A stretch of DNA of 64,000 nucleotides. Source: Escherichia phage vB-Eco-KMB40. The stretch is taken from the sequence record OR539220.1; one strand, given 5' to 3'. A program made the position numbers and the translations under genes. The notes below the pieces were generated by a model. That model was not told the origin of the DNA. It worked only from the letters and a program-made list of their open reading frames with translations, and made no database searches. Below, piece after piece: positions 13,248-62,720 of this stretch (the first letter of the stretch is position 1; every line of letters begins with the position of its first letter).

Positions 13248-13719
13248 TTGTTTTACCTAAAACAATAGTAGGAGCATCGTCAAATTCATGAATTTTGAGT
13301 AAATTTGGATTTAAATTATTCCATACATAATAAATAAAGTATGATAAAGCATCTTCACTCGCAATTATAAATTTATTTCCTTTATCTATTTTCCAGTCAT
13401 ATACTGAATCGTACGAATAAAAAGATAAAGGGTTATCATTATATTGTTCTGCGCTAACATTAATGTATTCGGATTTAGTAAATGCTTCAATTGCTCTAAA
13501 CGGACTATTTGACACAGTTTCAATAATTCCGATCTTTTTAAGTTTTATTTCAGCATCTTCTGGAACTGGCATTGAAACGAAATTTTCTACGAGATACATA
13601 GGGTTACGATAACCCTTATCAATCATTACGGCTACAGTAATTGGAACATCTTTAGCAAACGACATACTATTGCTGCTAATATACATTTCAAACAAAATCG
13701 CTTCCATAATTTTCCTCAA
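13222..13719 (-). CDS. hypothetical protein (165 aa)
   Basis: ORF in modB-soc cluster. Confidence 0.5.
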
Positions 13720-14361: not shown

Positions 14362-14598
14362 TTAACCACCTATTTCTGTGGGCGTAAACATTGCAGCATT
14401 CTTAGTTTTCCAGTCAGCTGCATCAGAAACTACAGTAGAATATGCCGCCTTTTCAGAAGGAAAGGTCTGATAATGAGAATCTGCAATACGATGCTCGTTA
14501 GAATAGATTTCAAATGGAACAGAAACTTCCATACCTTTAACTTCTTTGCCTTCACCTGCTGGATGAGTAAAGGTCTTGATGTTAACGAAACCACCCAT
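14362..14598 (-). CDS. soc: small outer capsid protein Soc (78 aa)
   Basis: size and sequence consistent with T4 Soc; late promoter and SD AAGGAG upstream. Confidence 0.8.
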   Translation of the reverse strand: MGGFVNIKTFTHPAGEGKEVKGMEVSVPFEIYSNEHRIADSHYQTFPSEKAAYSTVVSDAADWKTKNAAMFTPTEIGG

Positions 14599-14629
14599 AA
14601 TAAACTCCTTTATTGTTTAATTACAGGTG

Positions 14630-14637
14630 TATTTATA
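14630..14637 (-). promoter_or_regulatory. late promoter TATAAATA for soc
   Basis: exact TATAAATA on minus strand about 32 nt upstream of soc ATG. Confidence 0.65.
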
Positions 14638-14639
14638 AC

Positions 14640-14780
14640 TTACAATTTAGCGGCTTTCCAGAGTTGTTCAATAATCTCTTGGTCTATTTCTTTAGTTATT
14701 TCATTACGTAATAAAGCAGTAAGGGCTTTCGCCCTTTTCTTATTCAACTTTTTGAGTTGACGTTTATTTAAACGAGACAT
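14640..14780 (-). CDS. hypothetical basic small protein (46 aa), not in ORF track
   Basis: MSRLNKRQLKKLNKKRAKALTALLRNEI...; ATG overlaps gene 56 stop; occupies soc-56 interval where T4 has segF. Confidence 0.4.
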   Translation of the reverse strand: MSRLNKRQLKKLNKKRAKALTALLRNEITKEIDQEIIEQLWKAAKL

Positions 14781-15298
14781 TAATAACCTCGGTCCTGACG
14801 AGCAAAGTTCTCGGCATTTTTCAGGTAATACAGTTTAAAGATTTCTTCTGCTGTAAGACCAAGACCTTGGAACATGTTCAGAACGAAATGGAGAATATCA
14901 ATCATTTCAAATTTAATTTCCAATTGGTCTTGTGGAGACAAATCAGTAATCAGAGTTTCACGGCGTTCACCATGCTGCGACTTCCAAGGTTTCCATACAG
15001 CAGATGCATCTTTTTCGCCGTTGCTCATACCACCAAGAGAAGTCAAAAGTTCGCGGAATTCATCATCAATATAATCTTTCTGATTGCGCAGCCAATCAAC
15101 AACTTCACCTGCAGTAGCCAAATCATCAGGATGACGGTTATATTCAGGTTTATCTTTAGCTAAACGAACCTGCAAAGATTTCTGCATATCAAGCATAACT
15201 TGCAGCGGGTCTTTTTCATCACCGAGAATATCCCAGTATTCATTTTGAGCTTTATCAGCGCCTTCGATCAGTTGTGAACATTCATTAAAGTATGCCAT
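14780..15298 (-). CDS. 56: dCTP pyrophosphatase (172 aa)
   Basis: N-terminus MAYFNECSQLIEG and length as T4 gp56; track ORF extends further upstream in frame. Confidence 0.8.
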   Translation of the reverse strand: MAYFNECSQLIEGADKAQNEYWDILGDEKDPLQVMLDMQKSLQVRLAKDKPEYNRHPDDLATAGEVVDWLRNQKDYIDDEFRELLTSLGGMSNGEKDASAVWKPWKSQHGERRETLITDLSPQDQLEIKFEMIDILHFVLNMFQGLGLTAEEIFKLYYLKNAENFARQDRGY

Positions 15299-15332
15299 TA
15301 TTTTTCCTTTCAATTCATGGATTAGTAGATTA

Positions 15333-15356
15333 ATTATACAATAAATATATAAAGCA
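15333..15356 (-). promoter_or_regulatory. candidate middle promoter (MotA box TGCTTTA, 11-nt spacer, TATAAT)
   Basis: minus strand TGCTTTA at 15350-15356, TATAAT at 15333-15338; upstream of gene 56. Confidence 0.45.
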
Positions 15357-15369
15357 ATAAGGAGGACAT

Positions 15370-15570
15370 ATGGTACAAAAATTAATGGCACTTATTAATG
15401 CCATAAAAGGTAATAAAAAGCGTATAGCTTTTACTATTTCTGCTATGGTAGGAATTTTACTCTGGAACTTTATTTTATCACCTGTTGCAATTGCGCATGG
15501 TATTAATATTCCAGTAGTTACTCTTGATACATTCGTAGATTTAGCATTTGCTTTAGTTGGGTTAATTTAA
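15370..15570 (+). CDS. small hydrophobic protein (66 aa), only convincing plus-strand gene here
   Basis: strong SD AAGGAGG 4 nt before ATG; two hydrophobic segments; fills the 56-61 intergenic gap; stop overlaps primase stop. Confidence 0.5.
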   Translation: MVQKLMALINAIKGNKKRIAFTISAMVGILLWNFILSPVAIAHGINIPVVTLDTFVDLAFALVGLI

Positions 15571-16595
15571 ATCTTAGCATATTTAGATAACCGCATTTTA
15601 GCCATCAACCCCTGGGCAATATTATTTTTCATATATTCCATAATTTGTTCAGGGGTTGCACCTTCCTTTCTAATCATATCATTAACATCTTTTGATTTCC
15701 AGGGAGATTTATCCCAAAACATAACCCTTTCTCCTGCATCAACTAATTTAGTCATTCGCTTAATAGTGTCAGGATGACGAGGTTCATTATCTAAAACCCA
15801 CACACGTCTATCTTTAAATGGAACAACTTCTAGGTCTAATTGACCACCCGTAATAGCTATACCATTTTCAATAAAAAGTGAATCTATAGGTCCTTCTAGA
15901 ACATATACATCGCCATCTTTAACTCGTTCGACTCCATATATTTTTGTTGCCTCAGGATAAGCCTTAATGGTGATATATTTTTGAGGAGCATCTTTCTTTA
16001 ATGCACGTCCTTGAAAAGACTCAGCTTTTCCATTAGCATTATAAATTGGAATAACAAGACGAGGCTCAGAAATTTCCTTTTTGTATGTTCCCGGTGCTAT
16101 GCTATTAACTAATTTAGGCCATTCGGTTGTAAACCAAAGATATTTCCATTTATCCTTTGGAATACAACGAGCTTTTACATATTTTATAATTGGATGGTCT
16201 TCCGCCAGTTTATCTAATCTAACGCATGACGGAAGAGATTTAATTATTTTCTTCTCAGGTTGTTTAGGAAGTTCTTTAGGTTTTTCTACTGGACGACTTT
16301 TACCTTTTTCTTTTCTTATTTCAAAGATATACTCACGATATAAATCAGGTTCAAACTCCTTTAAATATATTCCGATTGGCGCATGATAGTTACAGTTATA
16401 ACAATGAATATTTCCTTCATTATTATCACCATAATACCATCCACGAGCTTTATTCTGGTCGGTTTTTGAATCTCCACAAACAGGACATCTAAACCGCAAT
16501 TTAAAAGTTGAACTATTATTTACTTGTGTGAATTTAGGTAAATGAGCTAATGCACGGTATGCAAACTCATTATCAATCCAAGGTATTGATGACAT
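15567..16595 (-). CDS. 61: DNA primase (342 aa)
   Basis: zinc ribbon CPVCGDS...CYNC, 342 aa as T4 gp61. Confidence 0.9.
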   Translation of the reverse strand: MSSIPWIDNEFAYRALAHLPKFTQVNNSSTFKLRFRCPVCGDSKTDQNKARGWYYGDNNEGNIHCYNCNYHAPIGIYLKEFEPDLYREYIFEIRKEKGKSRPVEKPKELPKQPEKKIIKSLPSCVRLDKLAEDHPIIKYVKARCIPKDKWKYLWFTTEWPKLVNSIAPGTYKKEISEPRLVIPIYNANGKAESFQGRALKKDAPQKYITIKAYPEATKIYGVERVKDGDVYVLEGPIDSLFIENGIAITGGQLDLEVVPFKDRRVWVLDNEPRHPDTIKRMTKLVDAGERVMFWDKSPWKSKDVNDMIRKEGATPEQIMEYMKNNIAQGLMAKMRLSKYAKI

Positions 16596-16761
16596 TTTTA
16601 CTCTTCTTTTTCTTTAGATTCCTCTTTTTCTTTTTAGGAATCTGTTCAGGGCCTTTATTTACTACAGCGCCTGACGTTGTTCCAGTAGAGATATTTTCAG
16701 GATTACCACCTGAATCTCCAGCGACCATATCTTCTTTGATAAATTCTTTATATGTTTTCAT
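16573..16761 (-). CDS. 61.1-position protein with capsid-targeting-like N-terminus (62 aa)
   Basis: N-terminus MKTYKEFIKE resembles internal-protein targeting sequence MKTYQEFIAE; SD GAGG. Confidence 0.5.
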   Translation of the reverse strand: MKTYKEFIKEDMVAGDSGGNPENISTGTTSGAVVNKGPEQIPKKKKRNLKKKKSKNVINTLD

Positions 16762-16762
16762 A

Positions 16763-17389
16763 TTAACCTCTATTCATAAAAGCATTAAAAATTTGGTCAT
16801 CAATAGAAACATTTACGTTAGACTGTTTTTCAGATGGCAATTCATATCCACATATTACAATTTTATGATCAATATCAAAATACACAGAAGCAATATGATT
16901 AATGATATTTTCAGTGAAGTCTAAATCGACATCAATATCTTTTTGACCACAGCCCAAAGGATAAATAATGCGAGTAATTCGATTATCTTTAACAAATATT
17001 CCACCGACATACTCTGTACTGCGTTTAAAGTCTACACGCCGACGAAATGAAAAATATTCAGGCTCTTTATGAGCTCGGCTCATAGGACACAACGAATAAC
17101 TAGAATAAGAGATGTCAAATCCTACGCCTTCGATATGAGCCAAAGTGTCATGATTAAACCAATTATAATCGTACGCCAAATCCATTAGATTATAATATGT
17201 AAAAGGCACCGGATTAACATCATTAGTCACAAGCATGTAATTAGCAACTGCTATAATTTCATTGTTTTTAACGAATACAAACCGTGATTGATGCGAATGA
17301 CCTGGACCCGCGTTTTCACGATTAATGATATAACACTGGGCACCTTTATATTTGTATGTATCTTTGCACTTGTGCATTTGATAGAGCAT
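16763..17389 (-). CDS. 61.2-position protein (208 aa); possible AdfA homologue
   Basis: 208-aa ORF downstream of primase; name by position and recollection only. Confidence 0.35.
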   Translation of the reverse strand: MLYQMHKCKDTYKYKGAQCYIINRENAGPGHSHQSRFVFVKNNEIIAVANYMLVTNDVNPVPFTYYNLMDLAYDYNWFNHDTLAHIEGVGFDISYSSYSLCPMSRAHKEPEYFSFRRRVDFKRSTEYVGGIFVKDNRITRIIYPLGCGQKDIDVDLDFTENIINHIASVYFDIDHKIVICGYELPSEKQSNVNVSIDDQIFNAFMNRG

Positions 17390-17710: not shown

Positions 17711-17740
17711 ATAGTATCTCAATTTCCAACAAAAGTAAAC
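17711..17740 (-). promoter_or_regulatory. early sigma70-type promoter
   Basis: GTTTAC at 17735-17740, TACTAT at 17711-17716. Confidence 0.5.
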
Positions 17741-17742
17741 AG

Positions 17743-18000
17743 TTATTTTAAAACTTCTGTGTAATCACATGTTACAAACTGTTTCTCTAGCTTGACGATT
17801 TTACGAAAGTATCTTTTACATTGACGAATCTGTCGCTTAGTAGGGCGCACAGCAAACTTAATAAATTCCACTCGACCAAATGGAGGGCTTTCTTCTGATG
17901 GAATATCTAACACCAATTCCCACGTATCCGCAATAAGTGCTTTGAATTGAGTATTTTTCCTGACGTTATACGGAGTAGGTTTAAATAAAACAATATGCAT
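17743..18000 (-). CDS. tifA: 61.4-position basic protein (85 aa); possible TifA
   Basis: ATG at 18000 with SD GAGGA overlapping dmd stop gives 85 aa; immediately downstream of dmd; name from recollection. Confidence 0.4.
   Translation of the reverse strand: MHIVLFKPTPYNVRKNTQFKALIADTWELVLDIPSEESPPFGRVEFIKFAVRPTKRQIRQCKRYFRKIVKLEKQFVTCDYTEVLK

Positions 18001-62189: not shown

Positions 62190-62720
<531 letters not shown>

Follow-up and report, generated by a model that had tools for sequence, protein, structure and literature searches.

The lone plus-strand open reading frame (ORF) between gene 56 and the primase gene 61 of Escherichia phage vB-Eco-KMB40 is, as judged from its sequence and from its relatives, a genuine T-even protein-coding gene, which has already been catalogued as the hypothetical gene dam.1. 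Taken as a whole, the observations are best explained if dam.1 is a genuine late gene for a small inner-membrane protein, and we regard this explanation as likely. New in this study are a conserved late-promoter box, a predicted single-pass topology with the N-terminus inside and the C-terminus outside, which would let a conserved motif face the periplasm, and an annotation gap in the genomes of T4 and JS98. The stretch of DNA analysed (record OR539220.1, 64,000 nucleotides; called the window below) is a segment of a Tequatrovirus, i.e. T4-like, genome. Over bases 15200-15700 it shares 99.4% identity with Escherichia phage VEc74, the closest relative, and 95-99% with over 400 further T-even records.

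As read from the window sequence, the ORF occupies 15370..15570 on the plus strand, with the ATG at 15370 and the stop codon at 15568-15570, and encodes 66 amino acids. A Shine-Dalgarno sequence AAGGAGG (15359..15365, plus strand) lies 4 nt 5' of the ATG, and GGAG(G) precedes the start codon in all homologues compared. The left neighbour is gene 56 (dCTPase, 14780..15298) and the right neighbour gene 61 (15567..16595), both of which are encoded on the minus strand. An earlier note, made from the letters of the window alone, had described a 66-codon plus-strand ORF with AAGGAGG among minus-strand genes, which ends stop-to-stop with the primase gene. Its coordinates could be confirmed, and in VEc74 17 of the 18 annotated genes around the locus are located on the minus strand, the sole plus-strand one being the dam.1 ORF. 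The stop codons of dam.1 (plus strand) and gene 61 (minus strand) indeed overlap, in a TTAA at 15567..15570, and the same layout is found in T4, RB51, EQ1 and KLB31.

The product matches PHROG 2024 ("unknown function") with an E-value of 9.6e-32, residues 2-66 aligning to positions 1-65 of the 65 profile positions. The T4T genome names the gene dam.1 (HM137666 17724..17924, protein ADJ39749.1), the RB51 record labels it "RB32ORF030w hypothetical protein, similar to RB69ORF029w", and hundreds of Tequatrovirus records list the ORF as a hypothetical protein. The T4 RefSeq record NC_000866 carries no annotation for the ORF at 17738..17938; likewise the JS98 record (EF469154) leaves it unannotated at about 2419-2619 of the locus segment. 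A few stray labels exist, namely "Holin" (UniRef, OE5505), "putative head morphogenesis protein" (T2, AP018813) and "DNA packaging ATPase" (SAKp28), which look transferred or automatic and without support.

Searches for more distant relatives returned little. Pfam and NCBIfam gave no match to the dam.1 product, the best hit of the family profile among the PDB sequences had an E-value of 0.11 (acetylcholine receptor transmembrane segments), and Foldseek of the model against BFVD and PDB retrieved only family members or noise. An exhaustive phmmer search of 1.8 billion representatives found phage relatives and, beyond these, only three long repeat proteins (P0032, P0036 and P0037). The latter were rejected as relatives, as they match only through a short PQQ-like beta-propeller repeat motif, "LLWNY..SSPAVANG", which resembles "LLWNF..SP.A..G" and is judged to be a short-motif coincidence. 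As a side observation, two database proteins, P0035 and P0170, appear to have been translated from reads of dam.1 and rI with C-to-T conversion (bisulfite-like): they differ throughout by A to V, T to I, P to L, S to F and H to Y, and this pattern marks them as artefacts in the protein collection. We found no paper that mentions the gene under any of its various names or accession numbers, and Petrov 2010 lists T4T without discussing dam.1. Nor did the searchable literature yield transcript, ribosome-footprint or protein data on the dam.1 locus, T4 start-site and ribosome-profiling data included. The dam.1 peptide IAFTISAMVGILLWNFILSPVAIAHGINIPVVTLDTFVDLAFALVGLI would be hard to detect by mass spectrometry.

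Conservation in close relatives, on which the earlier note had made its reading depend, is evident. By tblastn about 500 records contain the dam.1 protein at 89-100% identity, and Mosigvirus and Gaprivervirus-like phages (VR20/25/26) contain it at 48-57%; in every case it adjoins the primase gene. Syntenic plus-strand ORFs between genes 56 and 61 were identified in Kanagawavirus (KLB31), Jiaodavirus (JY1) and Dhakavirus (JS98), which brings the sampled Tevenvirinae genera with a syntenic homologue to at least six (Tequatro-, Mosig-, Gapriver-like, Dhaka-, Kanagawa- and Jiaodavirus). A profile search collected 117 clusters at 90% identity, all of 41-73 amino acids and all from T4-like enterobacterial phages; a Karamvirus family member appeared in the fold search, and single-protein scans of viral contigs yielded only 8 loci. 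The multi-genus alignment had no part that was sufficiently conserved for a scan of the contigs with a degenerate pattern. In Krisch-, Pseudoteven-, Roskilde-, Gualtar-, Biquarta- and Lazarusvirus no dam.1 is present at this locus. A co-directional gene follows within a few bases after the primase gene in all six, and in Biquartavirus the gap at the locus measures only 113 nt. There is thus no room for dam.1 beside the primase gene in these distant genera, and its absence there indicates that dam.1 is an accessory rather than a core gene.

The substitution pattern is that of a protein-coding gene. Among nine Tequatrovirus sequences the variable sites on codon positions 1, 2 and 3 number 8, 2 and 12, and the pooled pN/pS from 36 Tequatrovirus pairs reaches its minimum among the six frames in the ORF frame, at 0.16, the other five giving 0.26-3.2. 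Between genera dS is saturated (1.1 to more than 2) at a dN of about 0.42, and the frame is still open. By these comparisons the dam.1 reading frame is shown to be under purifying selection across at least six sampled Tevenvirinae genera. The conserved core W32 N33 ... P38. A40 ... G44 ... P48 .... D/E53 (15463..15528, plus strand, codons 32-53) was obtained from alignments of 34 diverse members, in all of which W32, N33 and P38 are invariant. A40, G44 and P48 are conserved in at least 94% of them, position 53 is Asp or Glu in 33, and G64 is nearly invariant.

A chance open frame in AT-rich spacer DNA would be an alternative, and it has some initial appeal since the window contains many spurious plus-strand ORFs of 60-124 amino acids. 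However, among the 37 plus-strand ATG-ORFs of at least 60 amino acids only dam.1 combines a full Shine-Dalgarno sequence with the lack of any overlap with a minus-strand gene. An ATG-ORF of at least 60 codons arises in just 0.8% of the shuffles of the spacer 15299..15570, and conservation, synteny, ribosome-binding site and pN/pS all speak to the contrary. The probability of a chance frame is in our view negligible.

The earlier note had stated that T4 carries dam near this position and had seen no dam-like ORF here. Both statements are correct: T4 has dam, and a tblastn search of the window with T4 Dam gave no dam-like ORF (best E-value 0.8). The implied reading that the ORF stands in place of T4 dam has to be given up, however, since T4 carries both dam and the dam.1 ORF, the latter between dam and gene 61 (NC_000866 17738..17938). 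Comparison with the T4 56-61 interval, which the note had proposed, thus finds the ORF present there, 63 of the 66 amino acids being identical to the window product (95% amino-acid identity). The dam cassette is an indel which adjoins the ORF. In the genome alignment homology between the window and T4 extends to window position 15338 and resumes from 15359; the about 20 nt in between (15339-15358) correspond to about 900 bp in T4 (NC_000866 16826-17724) that bear dam. The same slot is filled by dam and a 546-nt ORF in T2, and by a MazG-like gene in Klebsiella phage KLB31. This varied cargo between gene 56 and dam.1 marks the junction as a recurrent cassette insertion site, at which dam and other genes come and go while both flanking promoters are left undisturbed. 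On the other side of gene 56, the interval towards soc is occupied in T4 by the homing endonuclease gene segF; the region 14599-14780 of the window contains only a 46-codon minus-strand ORF (14640..14780) with a Lys/Arg-rich product.

Upstream of dam.1 a late-promoter-like box AATAAATA is located at 15340..15347 on the plus strand, which matches the T4 consensus TATAAATA at 7 of 8 positions and has an A at -13. As the late box spans -13 to -6 (PMC1524935), transcription is predicted to start at 15353 on the plus strand, which would give a 17-nt leader that contains the ribosome-binding site. All 17 loci compared, which represent 6 genera, have the core ATAAATA, i.e. TATAAATA without its first base, at a distance of 12-22 nt upstream of the ATG. 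Within Tequatrovirus it is kept irrespective of whether it adjoins gene 56, dam or the T2-type ORF, three upstream contexts that are unrelated to one another. The shortest distance is seen in Jiaodavirus, where the box lies 12 nt from the ATG and the leader would be reduced to 7 nt. The motif is rare in the window, with 9 copies against 41+-6 expected, an about 4.6-fold depletion in this mostly early region. The copies are located at 13330+, 14636-, 15341+, 16961+, 42406-, 55868-, 60166+, 62717- and 63106+, and all four on the minus strand lie 25-31 nt ahead of the start of a known late gene (soc, gene 49, rI.-1/rI or e). The remaining plus-strand copies (13330, 16961, 60166 and 63106) are not followed by a convincing ORF.

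The deviation from the consensus at -13 has precedents. An A replaces the T at this position in 9 of 50 listed T4 late promoters (PMC2988020), and Nolan et al. described position -13 as poorly conserved in T4 relatives (PMC1524935). The dam.1 boxes never have the T at -13 but A, G or C instead, and the promoter may for this reason be weak; G or C is not the common variant. The early and middle transcripts of T4 have one polarity, while late transcripts may have either (PMC2988020). A plus-strand gene at this locus can hardly be transcribed except late, and the expression of dam.1 is probably late, as far as the promoter sequence indicates.

On the minus strand the same few bases carry a middle-promoter-like site for gene 56 (15333..15359), read from the sequence, which consists of a MotA box TATTGCTTTA (15359-15350), an 11-nt spacer and a TATAAT (15338-15333). 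It fits the T4 middle-promoter pattern GCTT(N13-15)TATAAT used in the annotation of SA21RB, and an equivalent site precedes gene 56 in T4, where it is the oriA primer promoter. Gene 56 and dam.1 are separated by a spacer of 70 bp. Since the late heptamer falls inside the spacer of the gene 56 middle promoter, the two promoters are arranged back to back and overlap, and these putative middle and late promoters may be mutually exclusive in time.

A further minus-strand element, a terminator-like hairpin followed by a T-run, was identified inside codons 6-12 of dam.1 (15375..15404), 165 nt downstream of the gene 61 stop codon. The SA21RB record lists this hairpin as a rho-independent terminator. 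T4 has it, but Mosig-, Gapriver-, Dhaka-, Kanagawa- and Jiaodavirus lack it. The Jiaodavirus member Klebsiella phage JY1 has the ORF and the primase gene separate, with a GC-rich palindrome GGGGCTTTGGCCCC in between (segment 2663-2680), which looks like a bidirectional terminator. For the plus strand of the window no terminator-like site was found after dam.1 before 19757, so that the late transcript should run antisense into gene 61 unless it is stopped by Rho. An Rfam search over 14500-16800 gave no credible RNA family.

These elements raise the question whether the locus acts mainly at the level of RNA or DNA, be it as a late promoter directed antisense into gene 61 or as the 3'UTR and terminator of gene 61 together with the gene 56/oriA promoter, the ORF being secondary. 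The overlapping stop codons and the missing plus-strand terminator before 19757, which would make the transcript antisense to genes 61-41, would agree with such a role, as would the terminator-like hairpin inside the ORF and the overlap of the MotA-box promoter with the late box. However, selection acts on the protein, the pN/pS being lowest in the ORF frame, and the frame as well as the W-N..P..A..G..P motif outlast the saturated synonymous divergence. The hairpin is moreover limited to Tequatrovirus, and Jiaodavirus has kept the ORF although a bidirectional hairpin there would block antisense read-through. We therefore consider it very improbable that the element is mainly of this kind. An RNA-level effect could nevertheless exist in addition to the dam.1 protein.

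Based on the position-independent Hessa hydrophobicity scale and an AlphaFold2 model, a single transmembrane helix IAFTISAMVGILLWNFILSPVAI is predicted at codons 19-41 (15424..15492, plus strand), preceded by the basic stretch KGNKKR. In all members the best 19-residue window around the W-N motif has a Hessa sum between -2.4 and +3.8 kcal/mol, in comparison to +3 to +11 kcal/mol for the C-terminal segment across the family, in which conserved acidic residues are found. AlphaFold2 with the family alignment predicts helices at 2-12, 16-42 and 52-63 that are linked by a Pro-rich loop, with a mean pLDDT of 79. The N-terminal region is basic and poorly conserved in sequence between genera; the flank of the helix has a net charge of +2 to +6 in most members. 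The 25 C-terminal residues are largely hydrophobic with a net charge of 0 to -2. The simplest reading of this model is a single-pass protein with the N-terminus in and the C-terminus out, whose tail after the helix would be amphipathic and not a second transmembrane segment. The small membrane protein convergent with the primase gene that was suspected earlier is thus borne out by the predicted helix and the overlapping stops. Two hydrophobic segments, as then proposed, are visible in the window sequence, but only residues 19-41 score as transmembrane throughout the family.

The conserved residues are found from the outer half of the helix to just past its end, and the predicted functional surface would thus face the periplasm. 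Asparagine residues within a membrane and small-xxx-small pairs are commonly linked to helix-helix association. The invariant intramembrane Asn and the A40/G44 pair of the dam.1 protein accordingly favour a binding or regulatory role, or self-assembly.

Self-assembly would also be the basis of a holin-, viroporin- or toxin-like peptide, which would oligomerise via the intramembrane Asn and, late in infection, render the inner membrane leaky. The product is small, embedded in the membrane and, by inference from its promoter, expressed late. It contains at least the one transmembrane domain that is expected of a small holin (helix 19-41), and Asn33 in the helix is invariant, joined by Asp27 in Dhaka- and Slopek-type members. 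The UniRef name "Holin" of the OE5505 homologue points in the same direction but is probably an automatic label. A small hydrophobic peptide, as expected for a type I toxin, is present as well (66 amino acids, one transmembrane helix). With regard to an antisense RNA antitoxin, the 3' end of the gene 61 mRNA would be antisense to dam.1 up to the hairpin at 15404-15385, but that hairpin is found in Tequatrovirus only and no Rfam family matches. On the other hand, the C-terminus is hydrophobic with a net charge of 0 to -2 and is not the basic hydrophilic tail typical of holins, a conserved dual-start motif is missing, the endolysin gene e is about 47 kb away (it starts near 62,680), and Pfam, PHROGs and NCBIfam gave no match to a holin family. 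Lysis by T4 depends on the holin T, and T4 t mutants do not lyse, which means that no second holin is sufficient. The holin-like or toxin-like role put forward in the earlier note is hence not supported, in view of the acidic, hydrophobic C-terminus, the distance from e and the lack of a holin or toxin family match. We rate it as quite unlikely.

Alternatively, the helix might serve as a signal that is cut off or released, in the manner of a long Sec signal peptide or of the SAR domain of T4 RI, and about 24 periplasmic amino acids, HGINIPVVTLDTFVDLAFALVGLI, would then remain as the active product. A basic n-region is present, Pro38 is invariant at -5, and Ala40 occupies -3 in 32 of 34 members. 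A small residue is found at position 42 (-1; A 14, T 14 and S 5 of 34), and several members have Ala/Gly/Thr-rich helices of marginal hydrophobicity (+3 to +4 kcal/mol). The local alignment with the RI SAR domain scores 31, in comparison to 18+-3.9 for shuffles (p about 0.008). However, the h-region comprises 16-19 residues instead of the usual 7-15, and the Thr at -1 in 41% of the members makes a poor signal-peptidase site; hhalign against the RI family gives a probability of 0.1% and BLASTP an E-value of 0.34. A cleaved or released helix of this kind appears unlikely to us. A family relationship with the RI antiholin (PF24205) was considered separately and rejected: the pairwise alignment is suggestive, but the profile-profile comparison (hhalign 0.1%) speaks against it.

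The explanation which we prefer, dam.1 as a late gene for a small inner-membrane protein, would work as follows. After the onset of replication, RNA polymerase loaded with gp55, gp33 and gp45 would start at about 15353 from a late promoter of the A(-13) type. The short-leader mRNA would be translated into a 7-kDa protein, whose basic N-terminus would remain in the cytoplasm while residues 19-41 would cross the inner membrane. The conserved part would then be positioned at or beyond the periplasmic face, with W32-N33 in the outer half of the helix, followed by P38, A40, G44, P48 and the acidic residue 53, after which a short amphipathic helix is predicted. The buried Asn and the small-xxx-small pair A40/G44 could mediate the binding of another membrane protein or of a second dam.1 molecule.

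That such a partner belongs to the late envelope programme, i.e. to lysis timing, lysis inhibition, the control of spanin or holin, or the protection of the envelope, is a speculative suggestion, to which we give a minor but real chance. In a more specific version the W-N...P.A...G...P...E/D motif would bind a membrane protein of the phage or the host, for instance T, RI, the i-spanin or an envelope factor of the host, and would in this way adjust the timing or inhibition of lysis or the integrity of the envelope; this is put forward as a tentative and rather doubtful proposal. Should it be true, a missing player would be added to a system that includes the signalling of T-even lysis inhibition. 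In any case the late box on a strand that is transcribed only late and the topology of the family make a late envelope function of dam.1 a hypothesis that can be tested. NC_000866 and the JS98 record omit dam.1 although T4 serves as the reference phage of its family, and analyses keyed to those annotations would miss the gene. The practical consequence is modest, as dam.1 is one more small T-even hypothetical gene among many in T4.

A comparison with known systems helps to place the gene. The closest counterpart is dam.1 of T4T, which is the same gene (also known as RB32ORF030w, RB69ORF029w and PHROG 2024), encoded on the same strand and likewise placed against the 3' end of gene 61. The window differs from T4 in that dam.1 directly abuts the gene 56 promoter, the dam cassette of about 900 bp being missing. 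With soc, gene 49, e and rI.-1/rI of T4 dam.1 shares the solitary position among early genes, a late box of its own 22-31 nt 5' of the ATG and a strong ribosome-binding site. Those four share the strand of the early genes, in contrast to dam.1, which is encoded on the other strand, runs towards an early gene with overlapping stops and has a box in which A, G or C takes the place of T at -13.

At the protein level the dam.1 product resembles holins such as T4 T and lambda S in being small, membrane-inserted and, as inferred, late, and in having polar residues within the membrane; unlike them, it has no charged C-terminal tail and is encoded outside a lysis cassette. The RI antiholin of T4 is likewise small and late with a weakly hydrophobic N-terminal membrane segment that ends in F-x-L-S-P...A, but it carries a globular periplasmic domain of 70 amino acids, whereas only about 24 residues follow the helix in the dam.1 protein. 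Bacterial AcrZ, MgrB and MgtS show no sequence relationship to dam.1 and can serve only as an analogy for how it may work. They are single-pass proteins of less than 70 amino acids with conserved residues in or near the helix, as the dam.1 product is predicted to be, and they act by binding a larger membrane protein.
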